Below are positions 2,245 to 63,994 of a DNA stretch of 64,000 nucleotides, in pieces (within the stretch, counting starts at the first letter, position 1; every line of letters begins with the position of its first letter). A model generated the notes under the pieces. That model did no database searches. It was not told the DNA's origin and worked only from the letters and a program-made list of their open reading frames with translations. The position numbers and the translations under genes are program-made. The stretch is from a virus (Duplodnaviria; Caudoviricetes), in the IMG/VR virus record IMGVR_UViG_3300037851_000671, positions 154,773 through 218,772 of that record; one strand, written 5' to 3'.

Positions 2245-2970
2245 TTAGTATGGTATTGCATTGGCATCGCTAATCGCTTGCTCAATGTCAACGTAATTTA
2301 ATCCGGCCGTGTCTATTTTGTTTCTTGTTAGATTGTAGTGGTTTACTATTCCACTATAACTTTCAGCGTCTGGTAACACTGTAGTAATCACATTGTCATC
2401 GGAATCGCGAGGGAATTTTGCAGGTACATTTGGGAACAGTTGAGTATACCCTGCAATCAATCGTACAAGAGAATTGATCTGTGCTTCTGTTGGAGTGAAA
2501 ACAAGCATCTGTTGACCATGTACTGTAGCCATTGCTGTTTCGTGTGGCTGTACATTGTACTTCTGTTGATTGGCTTCACTGTAGAGGTTTTTATTCTCCC
2601 ATGCTTGTGGCATGTAAGCAATCTCTACGCCTGATCCAAGGTTGTTGAAAACACCTCCCTGTGACCAGGCTCCATGTGTTATATCCAAACATTGATACAC
2701 TGTAGCATAATTGTTCACACTATCGTCATCTATGATGAAATTTACAGACAGGCCACGAGCCAACAGGCCTTGGAAGCAGCTTTTGGCAGTGTAAGTGACT
2801 GACCAATGAACAGCAAACTGCTTTATGGTATTCTGCAAATCTTCAAAGCTAAGGCTTCTTACATTGTATTTCTTTTTGGGAGTGAAGTCAAAACCACCAT
2901 CTTCATCCCACTTAATTACTGGACAACCTATATCTACAGATTGTTCTCCAGCGTATATGCTTGTTCCCAT
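2245..2970 (-). CDS. N-acetylmuramoyl-L-alanine amidase (Amidase_2-like endolysin)
   Basis: 'FAVHWS', 'LSVNFIID', 'SGVEI', 'IVNHYNLTRNKID' fit the Zn-amidase motif order. Confidence 0.75.
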   Translation of the reverse strand: MGTSIYAGEQSVDIGCPVIKWDEDGGFDFTPKKKYNVRSLSFEDLQNTIKQFAVHWSVTYTAKSCFQGLLARGLSVNFIIDDDSVNNYATVYQCLDITHGAWSQGGVFNNLGSGVEIAYMPQAWENKNLYSEANQQKYNVQPHETAMATVHGQQMLVFTPTEAQINSLVRLIAGYTQLFPNVPAKFPRDSDDNVITTVLPDAESYSGIVNHYNLTRNKIDTAGLNYVDIEQAISDANAIPY

Positions 2971-2973
2971 GCT

Positions 2974-3702
2974 TTATCCTTTTTTCTCTGGTTTGAAATT
3001 CCCTTTCACTATATCAGCCATAGTTATTGGGTATTGAAAATGATCTCTGTCCTTGAATCCGAAGCTACCGTCACCACCCCACTTCAATCCAAGATCCTGT
3101 CCAAATTTCCCAAGACTATCCCACCAGCTCTCTGGTTTTTTCCACGCCATCTGTTCTTTCTCTATCGGAACAACGTCAACGGCTAGACCAAAGTTGTGCA
3201 GTGAGCTTCCTGGTTTGGCGTTGGTAACTATAGTAAGAGCTTTGCCGTTTTTGTCTTCTTTTACGGTACGACCCTGGTCATACAACTCTTGCTGTCTGGC
3301 ATTGCTTCTATACCCTTCAACAATACGAAGCCTGACTCCAACTTGAGCCGCACTCTCCAACAGTTTCTTTACCATTGGTTGGAATCTTGAATCCAACTCT
3401 GACAGCCGTGACATAGACATGGAATCCACCTCAACTGGCGTTCCTGATCCGATGCCCTGGTGTTGAGGTTCTTCCGTTGCTGCCGGTGTCTTGGTGGCTG
3501 AAGAAACCTCTGGCTGCTGTTGTTGAGCAGGCGCTACCTCTGATTGATCGTTTATCGGAGGCGCACCTTGCCAAAACTGTTTCATCAGTGTTGAGACCTG
3601 TTTCTCAACATCAGACATACCTGTATCGGCGGTAGTAGTATTGCTGTCTAATGCGGCTTTATAGAAAGCTGTTGAGTATTGGTATAGGCGCTTAAAATCC
3701 AT
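2974..3702 (-). CDS. M15-family peptidoglycan peptidase (L-Ala-D-Glu endopeptidase-like)
   Basis: 'EGYRSNARQQELYDQGR', 'TNAKPGSSLHNFGLAVD', 'WGGD..F.DRDHFQ'. Confidence 0.87.
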   Translation of the reverse strand: MDFKRLYQYSTAFYKAALDSNTTTADTGMSDVEKQVSTLMKQFWQGAPPINDQSEVAPAQQQQPEVSSATKTPAATEEPQHQGIGSGTPVEVDSMSMSRLSELDSRFQPMVKKLLESAAQVGVRLRIVEGYRSNARQQELYDQGRTVKEDKNGKALTIVTNAKPGSSLHNFGLAVDVVPIEKEQMAWKKPESWWDSLGKFGQDLGLKWGGDGSFGFKDRDHFQYPITMADIVKGNFKPEKKG

Positions 3703-3725
3703 GACAAGATGCTAGAATATACGCA

Positions 3726-4049
3726 TCAACTTAGGGTTGAGGTTTTGTTTTTGCGCTTCTTCACCTTATTGCGCACCAAGCCTTTTTCCAGCCCTCGTTT
3801 GATGTGGTTCAACAGGTTATCAGGTATAGGTGATTTATCAATTGACTCGAAAGAAAAAGGGTACACACAGACAACATAGTCATCTGAATTGTACCCTGCT
3901 TCTTTAATCAGATCGTTGACCTCATTTGTCAGAGCTGTAAACATTGAGACCAGAGAGTGCCTAAGTTCTGTTTTGAACTCAAGCAATTCATCTGGCTTTA
4001 GAACGTCTTTGGTTTTGGCCACACACTCTTCCACAAGTTTATCAGCCAT
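3726..4049 (-). CDS. hypothetical protein
   Basis: 107 aa ORF packed in the minus-strand operon. Confidence 0.5.
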   Translation of the reverse strand: MADKLVEECVAKTKDVLKPDELLEFKTELRHSLVSMFTALTNEVNDLIKEAGYNSDDYVVCVYPFSFESIDKSPIPDNLLNHIKRGLEKGLVRNKVKKRKNKTSTLS

Positions 4050-5330: not shown

Positions 5331-6004
5331 CCTACCAACGATGTGTTATCACGTATAGGACAAAATGGTTTTGTCAGTGTCTTGTGCCTGGTTGCTTTCT
5401 CCCTGGCGTGCATCATAGCAATCTCTTCTTTCTGTATCTTGTTAAATGTGAACCAGTTTTGAGAAAGATGAGGCAATTGCTCAGATACAATCATACCAGA
5501 CTGAAACTCAATACACCAGTCTTGTGTGTATATTCTTTCATTGAATTTGTCTGTCCAAAGACCAGGCCACAGTTTCTCTGACAGATCTCTAATCTCTGAA
5601 TAATACAGCTCGTATATCGGAAGTATGTCAGTTAGTAAAGCTGATGTTTTTCTATAGCTCCTTGAATACAAACCCTGTGTTCTATCAATTAAACCAAGAA
5701 CAACACCTTGGTTTGCCTCTGCTATATTGCTAAGTTCAATAACTGTGAAATTGTCTTTTGCAATAATGTTGTTGCCAGAAGGGTATGTGTGTTTAAGTAT
5801 GTGTTCTGATTGAGTGTTAAAAACAGGCATCACCCCGATCTTGCCGCCAATCAGTTCTGTTGTTTTACAGGCGCAGTGCAATACAATAGCTGAGTTTCTA
5901 CTGCCATCAAAACCAACCACTAGTTTTTTGAGACCATATTTAGAGGTATAGTCTCCAATCCACTTGGCGATATGAAGGACCAATTGATCAGCGTCGTGAA
6001 TCAT
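5327..6004 (-). CDS. NAD+ synthetase (NadE)-like protein with degenerate PP-loop
   Basis: 'IAKWIGDY..KKLVVGFDGSRNSAIV' and 'DILPIYELYYSEIRDL' follow the NadE layout, but SGGxDS is not conserved. Confidence 0.5.
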   Translation of the reverse strand: MIHDADQLVLHIAKWIGDYTSKYGLKKLVVGFDGSRNSAIVLHCACKTTELIGGKIGVMPVFNTQSEHILKHTYPSGNNIIAKDNFTVIELSNIAEANQGVVLGLIDRTQGLYSRSYRKTSALLTDILPIYELYYSEIRDLSEKLWPGLWTDKFNERIYTQDWCIEFQSGMIVSEQLPHLSQNWFTFNKIQKEEIAMMHAREKATRHKTLTKPFCPIRDNTSLVG

Positions 6005-10641: not shown

Positions 10642-10712
10642 GACAGCGAAAAAAAAGATCCGACCTTTTATTTGGTTTTGAATTCGAGATGAAAGATCGG
10701 TTGCGCGCTGTC
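10642..10712 (-). ncRNA. modular Y-RNA-like element E1 (minimal, no tRNA cargo)
   Basis: GACAGCG-CG..CCGATC-TTTCATC..GGTCGG..TTTTTTTT-CGCTGTC; ends complementary. Confidence 0.75.
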
Positions 10713-10788: not shown

Positions 10789-10792
10789 AAAC

Positions 10793-10909
10793 GGCAACGA
10801 AATTATGTAGACAATAGGCCGGCTTTTTACACCGTTTCCAAAGCCTCCGATGGATTCGAACCACCTAGCGCCAATTGATGATAGATGAAATGTCTACGAG
10901 CGCGTTGCC
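10793..10909 (-). ncRNA. modular Y-RNA-like element E2 (T-arm plus hairpin cargo)
   Basis: GGCAACG-CG..GTAGACA-TTTCATC..GGTGGTTCGAATCCATC..TGTCTAC..TTT-CGTTGCC. Confidence 0.75.
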
Positions 10910-10919
10910 AGAAATTAAA

Positions 10920-11054
10920 GAGTAACGAAAATTGCAGGACCACTGTTTTTTGTGCTACAATTACAACACATCCAGCCTTTCGACCGGAGCTGGGATTCGA
11001 ACCCAGACCTCTTAATTCTCAATTTAGGATGAATGATCCCACTGCGCGTTACTC
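10920..11054 (-). ncRNA. modular Y-RNA-like element E3 (circularly permuted tRNA cargo)
   Basis: GAGTAACG/CGTTACTC closing stem; T-arm CTGGG-TTCGAAT-CCCAG; acceptor TCCGGTC/GGCTGGA capped by GAAA; D-arm-like segment follows. Confidence 0.85.
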
Positions 11055-30375: not shown

Positions 30376-30923
30376 TCATATATCAAGCTGGCTCGGTTTG
30401 ACAAGAAAATCAATCACTCTTTGGGTGATTTTTCTATCAAGACCAGAGCTGTCATCTGTCAAAAACAACCACGATGGACTGGTTGGAAAGTTGTATGGTT
30501 CGTCATCAATGGCACAGAATTTATTGATTCTATGCTCTTCCATGAATGACAAAATTTCGGTTTGACGTGACGAATCTTCTCTTGGCAGGCACTCATCTTT
30601 TGGTAGGTACAACCACCCACTCATTCCAAAAAAAAATCTGGCGTTCTACCTATAATCCTACCCATCAGAAAGTCAAGTCTTTCCGGCGCATTATCGAGCA
30701 TGCATGCCAATCTGAGATGCGTCCAGAAATCGCTACCCGCGCCAATACCACTGATACGCCAAGAACTACTGACTACAATTTTGGCATCAGTTTGTTCACA
30801 GATATAGGCCAAGTTCCTGACTAACTCAGGGGCCATATCATGTCTTTTCTTTCTGCTTTCCGCAGTGTTTAGAACGCCATCAACATCAAGTGCTATGACT
30901 GGAAAATCATTGCTCATGACCAA
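30376..30923 (-). pseudogene. HAD 'Swiss-army-knife RNA repair-like' domain gene split at a T9 tract
   Basis: N-half 'IALDVDGVLN', 'IVVSSSWR', 'IGRTPD'; C-half 'KFCAIDDE', 'LFLTDDSSGL'; halves join if one T is added in the T9 run near 30628-30636. Confidence 0.65.
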
Positions 30924-31638
30924 GTTCTTTCAAAGCCTGCTGCAATAGGTATATGTGGCTTTCGCTGTCACTTGCTTGTGACATGATCAGATCATCAAGC
31001 CCAAGTGTAAGAGCATCCTTTTCTTTCAAGGCATCATACACTTTGCTTGCTACTGTCTGGAAAAGCTGCTCTGCGGCCAACGATGACTGAAGGTGTTTTG
31101 CAGGGTTACCCTTGTGCTCTTCAACAATGAACTGTGAGGCAATGTCACCAACCAACTCTTGATTGACTAGCTCACCACAAAGCCCCACCACTCTCTCGGC
31201 GGCATCATCAGCCATTTCTTGAACACCCTCGTATAGGCGCTGAAGAAGAAGGTGATGTTCATAACCAGCAGTTTCAAGATGGTTTTGATGATGTATCAAA
31301 TACATCGCACGAAGAACAGCAGCGTATACTGAAAGCATCTCACAATCATCATTGTCAAGTTTGCTTTCACCACGCTCGGTGCCAATGAAACCGTCAAGGA
31401 TACCTTCTGCAACTACAACAAGCGCACGTCTCTCTGAAGCTTCGCAACGGCATTTCCAACGCCTGAGCGCTTTGTTAATACAACTGTCAGGGTCCTTCTT
31501 AGTCTTGGACTTTGTGTTCTTCTTTTTATGGCCGCACATCCTATCGCAAAATGATTTCTGCTTAGGAGAACCTACAGGGGCTTTCTTTGTCCCTTCACAT
31601 TTTTCAGCGGCTTTGACTAGTTGTTCTAAGATATCCAT
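30907..31638 (-). CDS. ferritin/Dps-like domain fused to a Cys/Lys-rich N-terminal domain
   Basis: 'HHQNHLETAGYEHHLLLQRLYE..DDAAER', 'ESHIYLL'; N-part 'KQKSFCDRMCG..DPDSCINKALRRWKC'. Confidence 0.6.
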   Translation of the reverse strand: MDILEQLVKAAEKCEGTKKAPVGSPKQKSFCDRMCGHKKKNTKSKTKKDPDSCINKALRRWKCRCEASERRALVVVAEGILDGFIGTERGESKLDNDDCEMLSVYAAVLRAMYLIHHQNHLETAGYEHHLLLQRLYEGVQEMADDAAERVVGLCGELVNQELVGDIASQFIVEEHKGNPAKHLQSSLAAEQLFQTVASKVYDALKEKDALTLGLDDLIMSQASDSESHIYLLQQALKELGHEQ

Positions 31639-31673
31639 ACAAGGATCTCAGAATATGCAGTGTATGTATGTTG

Positions 31674-31745
31674 AGTCGAGAGCCCGAATCGAACGGGCGA
31701 TCTTCTAGTTTGCAGCTAGAGGCCTTACCACTTGGCTACCTCGAC
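31674..31745 (-). tRNA. tRNA-Cys(GCA)
   Basis: loop CTGCAAA, U73. Confidence 0.92.
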
Positions 31746-31747
31746 GT

Positions 31748-31822
31748 TGGAGCGGATAGCGGGGCTCGAACCCGCAACATTCTCGTTGGCAACGAGGCAT
31801 TCTACCATTGAATTACATCCGC
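31748..31822 (-). tRNA. tRNA-Gly(GCC)
   Basis: loop TTGCCAA, encoded CCA. Confidence 0.92.
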
Positions 31823-31828
31823 ATGTTT

Positions 31829-31968
31829 TCAGGCAAGATTGGGAATCGACCCACAGTTTGTTGCAAAACTTTTGTGTGGCTGGCCGTGTCACAGCCCTTT
31901 GGACTCACTCCGGTTTTGTTACTCAACAAACCCATTCACGAGATGTTTGGGCATCTCTTGCTTCCTGA
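31829..31968 (-). ncRNA. unassigned multi-hairpin RNA with 3' T-arm-like hairpin
   Basis: ends pair TCAGG..CAAGA / TCTTG.CCTGA; internal hairpins; TGGG-TCGATT-CCCA before the 3' strand. Confidence 0.55.
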
Positions 31969-31969
31969 G

Positions 31970-32041
31970 AGCGGGGTACCGGATTTGAACCGGTGACATC
32001 AAACTTGGAAGGATTGCGTTCTACCGCTGAACTAACCCCGC
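31970..32041 (-). tRNA. tRNA-Gly(TCC)
   Basis: loop CTTCCAA, acceptor GCGGGGT/ACCCCGC. Confidence 0.88.
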
Positions 32042-32050
32042 GTGTATTTG

Positions 32051-32944
32051 TTATGCTACGATATTACCATCTCTCGACATGTATTTTTCCTTGAGATAGT
32101 TTAGATAGTAGTTCCTATCTTCGTTATTTGCTTCTATATCACCAGATTCAATCATCTGCTCAAGAAATTCTTTCATCTTGCCGATTTCTCTACCATCGGA
32201 AACACCAAGCTGTTCCATGATATCATGGCCAAAACCCTTTGGAAGTTTTGACTTTGATTTCTCATCTTCTTCAGCAATGGTTTTGATTCTGTTTCTTAGG
32301 TTTTCAATACGAGCAAGGATAGCGTTTTTCTTTGAGAGATGCTTAGTGGTTATGTCAGCAGCAGAAAGCAGAAGAATATCATCAAGGTATTCTCCCATTT
32401 CTTTTGCGAACCTACGAACCGCAGAGTCAGTCCAAGAAGGTTCGTATCCTTCAATGTACCCAAGATTGTACACAAGAAATTGGATACGCTTGTACAGACC
32501 AGGAGAAAACAACTTGGTTCTAAGAGAGAACTCTTTGAATATCCTAGCGCTGATGTGTTCATGCTGGTGAAACGTTACCTTTCCATCTTTGATTGAAAAG
32601 GCTTTGGCTTTGCCCATGTCATGAAACAAAGCAGCCCAACGAACCGCTAAAGATTGCGGAGCTTGTGACATAACCTGCAACGTGTGAGGCCAAATTTCCT
32701 TGAACTGTTTCTCAGCGCGAAACTCTACAACTTCTTTCAGCTCAGGAAGAAGAGGATATAGGAACCCGCTTCTTTGCAGAGCAGAAAAAACCAGATATAC
32801 GTGAGGTGACAGGATTATCTTGTGGAGTATTGTAAGCTTTTCATGGTCCAAAGACAAAACGTCTTCAGCAGAAGATACAGATTCCAAAACCCCATCAAAC
32901 TTGCCACGCTGAGCAAGTTGGAGTGCCTGTTGAAGAATCTTCAT
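32051..32944 (-). CDS. stand-alone HD-domain protein resembling the C-terminal part of CCA-adding enzymes
   Basis: 'GFLYPLLPEL', 'IWPHTLQV', 'WAALFHDMGK', 'FHQHEHISA', 'GREIGK'; no N-terminal NTase DxD domain seen. Confidence 0.75.
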   Translation of the reverse strand: MKILQQALQLAQRGKFDGVLESVSSAEDVLSLDHEKLTILHKIILSPHVYLVFSALQRSGFLYPLLPELKEVVEFRAEKQFKEIWPHTLQVMSQAPQSLAVRWAALFHDMGKAKAFSIKDGKVTFHQHEHISARIFKEFSLRTKLFSPGLYKRIQFLVYNLGYIEGYEPSWTDSAVRRFAKEMGEYLDDILLLSAADITTKHLSKKNAILARIENLRNRIKTIAEEDEKSKSKLPKGFGHDIMEQLGVSDGREIGKMKEFLEQMIESGDIEANNEDRNYYLNYLKEKYMSRDGNIVA

Positions 32945-41421: not shown

Positions 41422-41509
41422 TAAATAGATCCGTAGTAAAAAAACCTCACGGATCTATCGTAAGTCAGGTTTCAAACGTTTGTAGAGAGCTATAATCATG
41501 TTAACCATT

Positions 41510-55079: not shown

Positions 55080-55204
55080 AGCAACGAAAGAATCGAAGAC
55101 CTTGCTTGTCGGCTGCTCTACCACTGAGCTATGTGGCGGGAAACCACAGCAGGACTCGAACCTGCGACCCGCTGATTAGGATGAAGGATCCTCTACGCGT
55201 TGCT
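55080..55204 (-). ncRNA. modular Y-RNA-like element E4 (circularly permuted tRNA cargo)
   Basis: AGCAACG/CGTTGCT; GATC-CTTCATC; T-arm GCAGG-TTCGAGT-CCTGC; acceptor TGTGG/CCACA closed by a loop; D-arm GCTC-AGTGGTA-GAGC; GGTC. Confidence 0.9.
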
Positions 55205-55808: not shown

Positions 55809-55932
55809 AACGAACGAAAGTTTTGAAGACCAACGCCCTCCGAAAGTCATGTTTCCTTGGGCCTAAATGATGCCCGCCAATTTAGGACATCGCACTGTCA
55901 TATTGATGAAAGATCTTCGTGACGCGTTCGTT
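55809..55932 (-). ncRNA. modular Y-RNA-like element E5 (non-tRNA hairpin cargo)
   Basis: AACGAACG/CGTTCGTT; GAAGATC-TTTCATC..GGTCTTC; internal CCTAAAT/ATTTAGG stem. Confidence 0.8.
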
Positions 55933-56470: not shown

Positions 56471-56622
56471 AAGGAACGAAAAAGCGAAAGACCAGTTTTT
56501 TCGCGCTCTACCAGACTGAGCTATATGCTGATGTTGGGCTTTATGAGCCTTGTCAGCATAGTTGGATTCGGACCAACGACCTCGATCTCCTAAAGATGAA
56601 TGATCTTTCTAACGCGTTCCTT
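56471..56622 (-). ncRNA. modular Y-RNA-like element E6 (circularly permuted tRNA cargo)
   Basis: AAGGAACG/CGTTCCTT; GATC-ATTCATC; T-arm GTTGG-TCCGAAT-CCAAC; acceptor TATGCTGA/TCAGCATA with inserted hairpin; D-arm GCTC-AGTCTGGTA-GAGC. Confidence 0.9.
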
Positions 56623-56703: not shown

Positions 56704-56771
56704 ACTAACGAAAATAGCGATGACCTTGGTTTTCAATGTTCGGTTGATGAAGGATCATCTTGCGCGTTAGT
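56704..56771 (-). ncRNA. modular Y-RNA-like element E7 (minimal)
   Basis: ACTAACG-CG..GATGATC-CTTCATC-20 nt-GGTCATC..TTTT-CGTTAGT. Confidence 0.8.
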
Positions 56772-57063: not shown

Positions 57064-57136
57064 TCGGATATCTGAGAGTTGAACTCAGCGCAAAAATCTT
57101 ATCAGGATTTCCAGGGCAACCGTCCCGTCCTACCCG
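57064..57136 (-). tRNA. tRNA-Ile(GAT), atypical D-arm
   Basis: loop CTGATAA, T-arm CTGAG/CTCAG. Confidence 0.65.
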
Positions 57137-58139: not shown

Positions 58140-58289
58140 AGATAACGAAAAGGGCTCAGACGAAGTTTTTTCCAGCGTCCAGCCGCCGCATGTTGCCCGG
58201 TTTTACCCAGGTGGTGCGGCGCAGGGAAATCGAATCCCTGTCGTTTGAATTATCGGTTCAAGATGAATCGTCCAAAAAGCGCGTTATCT
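58140..58289 (-). ncRNA. modular Y-RNA-like element E8 (permuted acceptor with encoded ACCA)
   Basis: AGATAACG/CGTTATCT; GGACG-ATTCATC..CGTCT; T-arm AGGGA-TTCGATT-TCCCT; GCGCCGC-ACCA-insert-GCGGCG. Confidence 0.82.
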
Positions 58290-60263: not shown

Positions 60264-60269
60264 AAAATC

Positions 60270-60360
60270 GTGATGACATTTGCCAGCGCTGGTCATTTGT
60301 CATCACTAAACCTGGTTGTGGATTCGAACCACTATGCGCGCCTGCCTGCCTGGCTACAGA
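60270..60360 (-). other. tRNA-like fragment (D-arm + T-arm, no anticodon arm) followed by a long hairpin
   Basis: TAGCC-AGGCAGGCA-GGC, GTGG-TTCGAAT-CCAC, then GTGATGACA/TGTCATCAC. Confidence 0.45.
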
Positions 60361-60364
60361 TCTG

Positions 60365-60446: not shown

Positions 60447-60636
60447 AAAAACCGGGGCTGCTCTATCCATTGAGCTAATCAACTTGTATTCAAACATTTC
60501 TTCGAACGGCACCTTCGCAAAGTGATATCCCTTTGCACTCCAGGCTTTAGCTTTCGCGTAACGTTGAGAGGAAATTGCCTTTGCAGGACTGTCATACATG
60601 TTGATATTGGATTCGAACCAATAACCAACCCCTTAG
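60447..60636 (-). ncRNA. circularly permuted tRNA-like RNA P1 with ~125-nt insert at the acceptor end
   Basis: GGGGT-TGGTT-ATTGG-TTCGAAT-CCAAT-ATCAAC-[insert]-GTTGAT-TA-GCTC..GAGC-A-GCCCC. Confidence 0.75.
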
Positions 60637-62402: not shown

Positions 62403-62650
62403 AAAACGGGGACTGCTCTACCAATTGAGCTAATCCAACTTTGTTCGATAACTAACGCCTCTTCAAACTCGCACCGTGTGGAAATCGCGTTTTTCCGTGA
62501 CAGGCTTTAGCAACAAGCCATGCAAGACATCCCCTCGCGAGGGAGCTAACACGGACTAACAGTTGCGTAAGAGTTGATAGGAGACAGTCTTATGAAGCAC
62601 TGTTACTTATCGAGTCGAATGCCGGACTCGAACCGGCAACCTTCCCCTCA
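62403..62650 (-). ncRNA. circularly permuted tRNA-like RNA P2 with ~175-nt structured insert at the acceptor end
   Basis: GGGGA-AGGTT-GCCGG-TTCGAGT-CCGGC-ATTCGAC-[insert]-GTTGGAT-TA-GCTC-AATTGGTA-GAGC-AG-TCCCC. Confidence 0.8.
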
Positions 62651-63175: not shown

Positions 63176-63271
63176 AGGATAACGAAAATTGGTTGACCTT
63201 TTGCCTTACGGCACATTACGTTTCGGTTTTTATTACTGATGTAGATGAAAGATCAAACCTGCGCGTTATCT
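63176..63271 (-). ncRNA. modular Y-RNA-like element E9 (short non-tRNA cargo)
   Basis: AAGATAACG/CGTTATCCT; GGTTTGATC-TTTCATC..GGTCAACC. Confidence 0.8.
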
Positions 63272-63359: not shown

Positions 63360-63517
63360 AAGCAACGAAAAGATTTGAGACCCTGCCTTTCGGCTCTGTT
63401 GTGTATACCAATTCCACCATACCGGCGTTTCCACGTTTCCACCGATAGCGGGACTCGAACCCGCAAACGTATTAGGTGACAGTTTTACAAGATGAAAGAT
63501 CTCGGATCGCGTTGCTT
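63360..63517 (-). ncRNA. modular Y-RNA-like element E10 (permuted tRNA-Leu-like cargo)
   Basis: AAGCAACG/CGTTGCTT; GAGATC-TTTCATC; long variable region, T-arm GCGGG-TTCGAGT-CCCGC, Leu-type D-arm GGTGGAATTGGTATACAC. Confidence 0.88.
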
Positions 63518-63609: not shown

Positions 63610-63791
63610 AGGATAACGAAAGATTGTCAGACGGGTTTTTCAACACCAGTCTGCCCATTGTTTTCAGAAGAATTGAGACTTGTTTTTACCGGCACAACCA
63701 GCATCTCAATTTGGCGGGCAGCTAAGGAATCGAACCTTAATGTCTATACGTTGGAAATATTAGATGAACCATCTAACTATGCGCGTTATCT
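63610..63791 (-). ncRNA. modular Y-RNA-like element E11 (permuted acceptor with encoded GCCA)
   Basis: AGATAACG/CGTTATCC; AGATGG-TTCATC..CCGTCT; T-arm TAAGG-TTCGATT-CCTTA; GCTGCCC-GCCA-insert-GGGCAG. Confidence 0.82.
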
Positions 63792-63875: not shown

Positions 63876-63994
63876 AGCAACGAAAGGAGCGAGACCCTAC
63901 ATGCCCACATGGGCGATTCCCCAGTGAAAAGAACCCGAAGGTTCGGTGGGGAATTAAGTTTCGAGCTTAGATGAAAGATCCCTAACGCGTTGCT
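63876..63994 (-). ncRNA. modular Y-RNA-like element E12 (multi-hairpin non-tRNA cargo)
   Basis: AGCAACG/CGTTGCT; GGGATC-TTTCATC..GGTCTC; internal TTCCCCA/TGGGGAA and GAACC-TTCG-GGTTC stems. Confidence 0.82.

Follow-up and report, generated by a model that had tools for sequence, protein, structure and literature searches.

Structured spacers are commonplace in operons, and non-tRNA segments within the transfer RNA (tRNA) operons of phages are an already known kind of sequence. Bacteriophage T4 provides the example, with RNAC and RNAD both expressed from its tRNA cluster and their roles there still reported as unknown (PMC3014915; PMC9697503). The T4 species 1 RNA, 139 nt long and encoded in the same cluster, folds into a terminal stem, a long rod, a hairpin, and a T-arm positioned 9 nt from the 3′ end. 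A second point of reference is the YrlA-type Y RNAs (RF02553), which carry a GNCGAAN0-1G motif together with mimics of the D-arm and T-arm (Chen et al. 2014, PMC4201824). Here we consider a segment of similar placement in a 64,000-nt stretch of viral DNA (hereafter the window; IMG/VR record IMGVR_UViG_3300037851_000671, positions 154,773 to 218,772), namely the spacer that separates tRNA-Gly(UCC) from tRNA-Gly(GCC), which we refer to as the element. The window makes up the final 64 kb of a contig of 218,772 bp that CheckV estimates to be ~51% complete, and the source is therefore a very large phage. In the interpretation we favor, to which we assign a probability of about one half, the element is a lineage-specific structured operon spacer that is excised in the course of tRNA maturation.

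The position and strand of the element follow from the annotation of its neighbors (Table 1). The original prediction described an unassigned 140-nt RNA between two glycine tRNAs, and this siting is borne out by the ARAGORN and Rfam coordinates, the full gap being 146 nt. All of the window tRNAs reported by ARAGORN (31/31) lie on the minus strand, in agreement with Rfam, and the element must accordingly be read on that strand. Upstream, the gene for an HD-domain protein ends 9 nt before tRNA-Gly(UCC); its product matches Pfam HD (2e-06) and the PHROG tRNA nucleotidyltransferase family (8.6e-08). Composition is uninformative, with a G+C content of 47% in the spacer and 43 ± 5% in intergenic DNA, and a promoter and terminator scan found no promoter-like or terminator-like sites inside the spacer. 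Given the tight same-strand tRNA flanks, the same-strand block of genes, and the absence of such sites inside the spacer, this layout makes it very likely that the spacer is co-transcribed with the tRNA operon and excised from it.

Folding of the minus strand gives a compact architecture in which the two ends of the element pair as an 8-bp closing stem. Three arms branch off inside it, namely a hairpin of 6 bp, a long rod, and a small T-like hairpin. This gross shape, an end-pairing stem around three arms, is identical in both fold solutions. With position 1 of the element set at 31968, the terminal pairs UCAG/CUGA form with probabilities of 0.87–1.0, and the closing stem stops 6 nt ahead of the downstream tRNA. 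Within the long arm, positions 37–45 pair with 106–114 and positions 51–56 with 100–105, while two small hairpins (58–68 and 73–87) make up the tip. Pairing in the rod is less certain, since its GUUUG/CAAAC part (38–42 with 109–113) has a probability of ~0.5, and the local hairpin GGUUUGUU/AACAAAACC is a minor alternative to it at 0.06–0.48. The T-like hairpin closes a UCGAUU loop that corresponds to the canonical UUCGAUU minus one U. A tRNA-like register of the ends, GCAAGA/UCUUGC, competes with hairpin 1 and is populated at only 0.01–0.05 in the ensemble because the 6-bp hairpin uses G12 and A13; adopting a cloverleaf costs +3.1 kcal/mol over the minimum-energy fold.

The helices listed in the original prediction thus fare unequally. 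The end pairs, GAUG/CAUC, and the T-like hairpin do form on the minus strand, although they are statistically weak; GAUG/CAUC reaches a probability of ~0.99 and grows into the 6-bp GAGAUG/CAUCUC. GGCUG/CAGCC is present at a probability of only ~0.38, GGUUUGUU/AACAAAACC exists as the minor conformer described above, and the end pairing through GCAAGA/UCUUGC is a disfavored register.

As a whole, the structure of the element exceeds chance only marginally. Its fold has a z-score of −1.75, with 9 of 200 shuffled sequences folding equally well, and a second run gave −1.56. The end-to-end duplex, at −10.8 kcal/mol, has p ~0.04 both against shuffles and against random genomic windows. The contig contains 15 hairpins of 4 bp with a TCGANN loop, compared with ~31 in its shuffled versions, and because this class of hairpin is not above chance, the T-like hairpin is no evidence when taken alone.

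Searches for relatives of the element indicate that the arrangement is shared more widely than the sequence. There are no paralogs in the 219-kb contig, and blastn against 50,697 GenBank phage records gave no match. In IMG/VR no homolog was recovered with an exact 21-mer of the element, by single-protein locus searches, or with the flanking tRNAs as anchors, the last returning one unrelated high-GC phage only; a metagenome scan returned one non-syntenic high-GC contig and no homolog. The HD protein forms a singleton cluster, indicating that the collections hold no near-identical genome, and its gene was used as a synteny anchor to reach relatives. These encode HD proteins of 45–55% identity, many of them on contigs of 130–460 kb, and keep the gene order SET gene, HD gene, tRNA-Gly cluster, (NUDIX), DUF5856. 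Eight of them have the arrangement Gly(UCC)-spacer-Gly(GCC) after the HD gene, with spacers of 60, 66, 67, 131, 135, 160, 174, and 229 nt.

Neither blastn nor nhmmer detects the element in these eight spacers, and BLAST over five whole related viral records gives chance matches only. A covariance model of the element itself (R2), which recovers the element at 179 bits, has no match in the five related records, in ~20 related loci, or in the T4 RNAC/RNAD locus (L069 in our numbering of loci, used below where relatives have to be told apart). Structure conserved between the element and related phages, whose absence the original prediction named as one part of its refutation, was not found by BLAST, nhmmer, or R2, in relatives that are themselves distant, with 45–55% identity in the neighboring protein. 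The spacer design recurs in part. A global closing stem is present in five of the nine same-position spacers, the element included (four of the eight relatives), and in all nine, as read from the folds, a helix ends 4–6 nt before the downstream tRNA. The strength of the end duplex varies among them, with p values of 0.04 for the element, 0.03 for L044, 0.10 for L062, 0.54 for L050, and 0.99 for L041, and a UAAGGG..UGG motif common to the spacers is not enriched over chance. Across relatives the design of the spacer appears to recur, and its sequence does not.

The favored interpretation can be stated as a series of steps. The HD-protein gene, tRNA-Gly(UCC), the spacer, tRNA-Gly(GCC), tRNA-Cys, and the DUF5856-like gene would form one transcription unit, in which the spacer segment is predicted to fold by itself into a closed three-armed structure. 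RNase P would cut at the 5′ end of tRNA-Gly(GCC), the CCA-less tRNA-Gly(UCC) would be matured by 3′ trimming and CCA addition, and the intervening segment would be released as a fragment of ~140–146 nt. The self-contained fold may prevent pairing between the spacer and the glycine tRNAs, which are similar to each other, or mispairing of these two, and could offer RNase P a short single-stranded leader. Once excised, the piece would probably have no separate job and may be degraded.

Several observations weigh against this account. The insulating or processing role is something we infer, and the gaps between adjacent tRNAs in the window, which are bimodal (≤24 nt or ≥72 nt), suggest a different expectation: five of the eight long gaps are filled by verified members of an RNA family of this phage, here called handle RNAs, so that a long gap in this genome is usually an RNA gene. 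The modest z-score carries limited weight as well, because genuine RNAs can score low (−1.77 for a verified handle RNA and −0.83 for T4 RNAD), and a value of this size is therefore compatible with a real RNA. Moreover, the same slot holds conserved, covarying RNAs in relatives. The L074 and L041 spacers are conserved at z = 13.7 when their HD proteins are only 62% identical, sharing a core of ~75% nucleotide identity, an invariant 16-nt loop (GAAGAUUAUCUAAAAG), and compensatory changes in the stems; the L073 and L072 spacers form a second such pair (z = 13.2). The position can thus host functional RNAs. Finally, since all of the available relatives are distant, the lack of a detected homolog counts for little.

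Whether the element belongs to a described family was addressed with several models. An Rfam search with queries of 441 nt and 161 nt, proposed as a check along with the original prediction, assigns the spacer to no family whether the gathering score or E ≤ 10 is taken as the cutoff, and the plus strand gives noise matches only (sau-30, E = 1.3; Hrs13, E = 4.7). A tRNA would be defined by a 7-bp acceptor stem, a D-arm, a 5-bp anticodon stem with a 7-nt loop, and a 5-bp T-stem with a UUCRANY loop. At the same Rfam thresholds RF00005 has no match on the spacer, ARAGORN calls no tRNA on the minus strand even when introns are permitted and the threshold is lowered to 70%, its mitochondrial mode calls none on the element, and by direct reading no anticodon arm of canonical size fits. 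Local alignment to 80 tRNAs, taken from this phage and its relatives, gives no significant similarity (best p = 0.13 with the whole element and 0.19 with its 3′ part). With negative results from the tRNA model, ARAGORN, and the alignments, the description of the element as tRNA-like is unsupported. Its likeness to a tRNA in the proposed T-arm and acceptor stem is best taken as being at the level of chance, the hairpin being noncanonical and common by chance and the acceptor register being disfavored in the ensemble.

The same tools agree with two further statements of that prediction, that the element is not tRNA-Sec and is too short for a transfer-messenger RNA (tmRNA): there is no match to RF00023 or RF01852, and ARAGORN -m at an 80% threshold finds none. 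Of the prediction in its entirety, an enlarged tRNA-like noncoding RNA co-processed from the operon, the co-processing is very likely from the layout and the likeness to tRNA is unsupported. For the YrlA family, the sole RF02553 match scores 23.9 bits against a gathering score of 69 and falls over tRNA-Gly(GCC) and tRNA-Cys, off the spacer; by direct reading the GNCGAAN0-1G motif is absent from the element, which has GUCGAU. A handle of the CNGCAA type found in Ro60-linked RNAs was also considered and set aside, because by reading the element has AAGCAA at positions 6–11, lacking the first C, and no 7-bp stem 3 nt upstream.

The handle RNAs are the most frequent occupants of long inter-tRNA gaps in this phage and were examined as a possible home for the element. 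Their consensus consists of a stem followed by AACGCGy, 5–10 nt, GAUC-yUUCAUC ... GGUC, 8–11 nt, and UUUCGUU leading into the stem, with compensatory variants in the GAUC/GGUC helix (P2). Membership was defined by a stem ending in AACG then CGy, a GAUC-yUUCAUC box 19–22 nt in, and GGUC and UUUCGUU before the 3′ strand. R1, a covariance model trained on 11 handle RNAs, detects 12 copies in the window with scores of 50–85 bits, of which the twelfth (63361-63516, 55 bits) lies outside the training set; five copies match the extent of a gap between adjacent tRNAs almost exactly, and so does the element. On 31600-32100, R1 has no match with filters off at E ≤ 10, nhmmer profiles of the 5′ and 3′ halves of the handle have no match on the element, and the strings CGCGY, UUCAUC, and UUUCG are absent from it. 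Membership of the element in the family is thus rejected by motif, hidden Markov model, and covariance model alike. Two copies of the family, 55080-55204 and 56471-56622 on the minus strand, contain a T-arm followed by a D-arm-like AGCUCAGUGGUAGAGC, and their bodies resemble circularly permuted tRNAs.

These comparisons bear on the possibility that the element is an evolutionary remnant, a decayed tRNA gene or handle RNA drifting without function, which we consider unlikely. Gain and loss of genes do occur at this locus, as the tRNA-Gly copy number among relatives ranges from 1 to 4, and a T-loop-like UCGAUU stands beside a stem strand as it might in a tRNA relic, yet the best of the 80 tRNA alignments is not significant. 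Similarly, both ends of the element resemble the handle copy at 55080-55204 by eye, but against the 12 handle RNAs this end similarity is not significant (best p = 0.02 among 24 tests), and neither the profiles nor the covariance model register it. The 60-nt spacer of L044 aligns with positions 26–73, in the interior of the element, with p = 0.004–0.008 before correction for 8 comparisons; this is suggestive at most, and the tRNA-like ends are not involved. A perfectly complementary 10-bp closing stem is also unlike the product of free decay.

Far less probable still is that the element encodes something else, either a very short peptide or, on the plus strand, a tRNA-Cys(GCA) interrupted by a 59-nt intron. 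With introns allowed and an 80% threshold, ARAGORN calls a plus-strand tRNA-Cys at 31831-31965, and by direct reading the palindromic UUGCAA looks like an anticodon loop on both strands. ARAGORN makes this call only when its default threshold is lowered, the D-loop has no GG, and the T-loop reads UUUGGG(C); nearby genes and tRNAs are all on the minus strand, among them an intact tRNA-Cys(GCA) at a distance of 80 nt. We reject the call as a mirror image of the same helices. Among peptide candidates, an 11-codon open reading frame (ORF), MPKHLVNGFVE, has a Shine-Dalgarno-like AGGAAG 9 nt upstream of its AUG by direct reading, and a 40-codon ORF spans 31813-31935. The latter lacks a ribosome-binding site and extends into the tRNA, and the overlapping ORFs have no protein-family match apart from one weak PHROG match over the tRNA-overlapping part. 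A parallel may exist in L042, where one spacer between glycine tRNAs (5489-5612) is unstructured (z = +0.4) and by eye contains an apparent ORF for a basic peptide of 31 amino acids (MGIKKHRSIK...) with a GGAG site.

The main competitor, though in our judgment a less likely one than the spacer, is that the element is a stable small RNA gene of the kind represented by T4 RNAC and RNAD: an RNA of ~140 nt with a partial tRNA-like end that is cut out by tRNA-processing enzymes and acts in trans. It might, for example, serve a tRNA-binding enzyme or the phage RNA-repair/Ro60 machinery as decoy or partner. The T4 RNAs are expressed, and T4 species 1 RNA has the same order of parts and approximately the same size as the element; most long inter-tRNA gaps in this phage are RNA genes, relatives hold conserved covarying RNAs at the same position, and the closing stem is slightly above chance. 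Against this, the element has no homology to T4 RNAC or RNAD in sequence or structure and no homolog in the databases and relatives searched, and its fold z-score of −1.75 compares with −4.6 for T4 species 1 RNA. The features that would link it to tRNA-processing or tRNA-binding enzymes are poorly developed. The T-like hairpin is noncanonical and at chance level, the CCCAAA loop of hairpin 1 lacks, by direct reading, the GG needed for a tRNA elbow, and the stem is not followed by CCA. The 7-bp acceptor stem is a major determinant for RNase P (PMC4201824), and the acceptor-like register of the element has just 6 bp plus a G-A mismatch and is disfavored. We judge the element more likely to be a spacer than a new RNA gene.

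A more specific form of the same idea, which we regard as improbable, would make the element a lineage-specific counterpart of T4 RNAC whose minimal mimic of a tRNA end serves as decoy or cofactor for a tRNA-directed activity, with the Gly(UCC)-Gly(GCC) slot acting as a hot spot at which small RNA genes are swapped. Candidate targets would be a host anticodon nuclease or other tRNA-targeting defense, the adjacent HD/CCA-type enzyme, or the Ro60/RNA-repair set.

Table 1. Coordinates of the element, its structural parts, neighboring genes, and related RNAs. Positions refer to the window unless a locus label precedes them; positions within the element are numbered from 31968.
Feature	Coordinates	Strand	Basis or remark
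Element (whole inter-tRNA spacer, 146 nt)	31823..31968	minus	ARAGORN + Rfam tRNA coordinates
Closing stem, 5′ strand, positions 1-8, UCAGGAAG	31961..31968	minus	minimum-energy fold; positions 1-4 pair probability 0.87-1.0
Closing stem, 3′ strand, positions 132-140, CUUGCCUGA	31829..31837	minus	G135 bulged in minimum-energy fold
Hairpin 1, GAGAUG-CCCAAA-CAUCUC, positions 12-29	31940..31957	minus	best-supported helix; pair probability 0.97-0.99
Long arm, positions 37-114: 9-bp helix, 5-nt bulge, 6-bp helix	31855..31932	minus	minimum-energy fold
T-arm-like hairpin, UGGG-UCGAUU-CCCA, positions 116-129, 4 bp + 6-nt loop	31840..31853	minus	probability 0.6-0.8
A-rich single-stranded linker AAACAU, immediately before the tRNA-Gly(GCC) 5′ end, where RNase P is expected to cut	31823..31828	minus	fold
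tRNA-Gly(UCC), upstream flank, CCA not encoded	31969-32041	minus	ARAGORN/Rfam, sequence
tRNA-Gly(GCC), downstream flank, CCA encoded	31748-31822	minus	ARAGORN/Rfam, sequence
tRNA-Cys(GCA), 2 nt past tRNA-Gly(GCC)	31673-31745	minus	ARAGORN/Rfam
HD-domain protein gene, 297 amino acids, resembles C-terminal part of CCA-adding enzyme	32051-32944	minus	
Gene for 243-amino-acid protein, sub-threshold DUF5856/ferritin-like match	30907-31638	minus	conserved end of syntenic block
Handle RNA	10642-10712	minus	R1
Handle RNA	10792-10910	minus	R1
Handle RNA	10920-11054	minus	R1
Handle RNA	55080-55204	minus	R1
Handle RNA	55809-55932	minus	R1
Handle RNA	56471-56622	minus	R1
Handle RNA	56704-56771	minus	R1
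Handle RNA	58140-58289	minus	R1
Handle RNA	63178-63270	minus	R1
Handle RNA	63361-63516	minus	R1
Handle RNA	63612-63790	minus	R1
Handle RNA	63876-63994	minus	R1
Conserved covarying spacer RNA, pair 1	L074:2900-3030		Gly(UCC)-Gly(GCC) slot
Conserved covarying spacer RNA, pair 1	L041:5207-5380		Gly(UCC)-Gly(GCC) slot
Conserved covarying spacer RNA, pair 2	L073:2728-2887		Gly(UCC)-Gly(GCC) slot
Conserved covarying spacer RNA, pair 2	L072:3016-3244		Gly(UCC)-Gly(GCC) slot

The loci of the relatives contain further features of interest. The L041 spacer, the sole one of the four conserved covarying spacers scanned with Rfam, has no match at E ≤ 0.01. Three additional pairs of related structured segments were noted by eye near tRNA-Gly genes, L049:~2715-2790 with L050:~2807-2887, L043:5065-5147 with L042:5687-5770, and L043:4880-4989 with L042:5300-5415; one of these three pairs (GUUGAGGU ... 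GGGGAUAUGGGAC ... ACCUCAAC) lies on opposite sides of tRNA-Gly(UCC) in its two phages. L050 continues with a tRNA-Cys(GCA)-like sequence at ~2968-3042 that has a UUUGAUU T-loop, repeats the gene order of the window, and is missed by ARAGORN and Rfam. In L067 the region after the HD gene (2408-3888) carries genes for an IS605-type OrfB/TnpB (Cas12f-like) protein and a Y1 transposase in place of the tRNA-Gly cluster.

Other candidate RNAs are present in the window itself. A second orphan inter-tRNA RNA of 100 nt occupies 60264-60363 on the minus strand between tRNA-Leu(CAG) and tRNA-Glu(CUC); a canonical T-arm (GUGGUUCGAAUCCAC) and a 9-bp hairpin are present in it, its z is −1.6, and it was missed by the handle model and by ARAGORN. 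The 88-nt gap between tRNA-Thr(UGU) and tRNA-Lys(UUU) (41422-41509, minus) contains a strong hairpin of ~11 bp (AUAGAUCCGUG...CACGGAUCUAU-type), with z = −2.4 and no family match. Canonical T-arm hairpins of the GGUUCGA type also occur outside the ARAGORN tRNAs and the 11 motif-defined handles, at 62620-62638, 60605-60623, 60318-60332, and 57072-57088 (minus), the third being part of the second orphan. These stray hairpins suggest further tRNAs or tRNA-like RNAs missed by the standard finder. Beside tRNA-Ser(GCU), the segment 28528-28613 (minus) scores 31.3 bits with the Rfam tRNA model and is not reported by ARAGORN.

If the element is a structured spacer and nothing more, it is ordinary, and it warns that a terminal stem and a UCGA-loop hairpin near tRNAs are insufficient to call a tRNA-like RNA. 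The context is more useful, in that a clade of huge phages has kept this slot, which follows the HD gene and is bounded by two glycine tRNAs. More promising objects of study are the conserved covarying RNAs that fill it in some relatives, and the second orphan (60264-60363). With the relatives' spacer RNAs the element shares its slot after the SET-HD genes and a similar length, and apparently also a closing stem around hairpins and a helix end 4–6 nt before the tRNA; it differs in that those RNAs occur as pairs conserved with compensatory changes, whereas the element has no partner and no sequence or covariance similarity to them. The handle RNAs, which are Y-RNA-like and presumed Ro60 partners, likewise fill inter-tRNA gaps almost exactly, have ends that pair, span a size range (68–179 nt) that includes the element, and in some members contain a T-type hairpin. 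The element is set apart from them by the lack of AACGCGy, the GAUC-yUUCAUC box, and GGUC ... UUUCGUU, and by the absence of any R1 match where members score 50–85 bits. The YrlA-type Y RNAs resemble it in combining a long end-paired stem with a T-arm-like hairpin module; the element differs from them in lacking the GNCGAAN0-1G motif and a D-arm mimic and in its noncanonical T-loop.

Comparison with T4 RNAC and RNAD defines both the similarity and its limits. The T4 RNAs have been shown to accumulate, whereas the element is a prediction from sequence, and there is no sequence or covariance-model similarity between them. The T-arm of T4 species 1 RNA is canonical, with 5 bp (CCGGG-UUCGAAU-CCCGG), compared with the 4 bp and 6-nt loop of the element. 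In both phages a non-tRNA segment of ~140 nt, within the range of 120–140 nt, lies in the tRNA operon on the same strand as the tRNAs and is arranged as a terminal stem, a rod-like arm, a further hairpin, and a T-type hairpin before the 3′ strand. If the element is in fact a stable RNA, it would join RNAC and RNAD.

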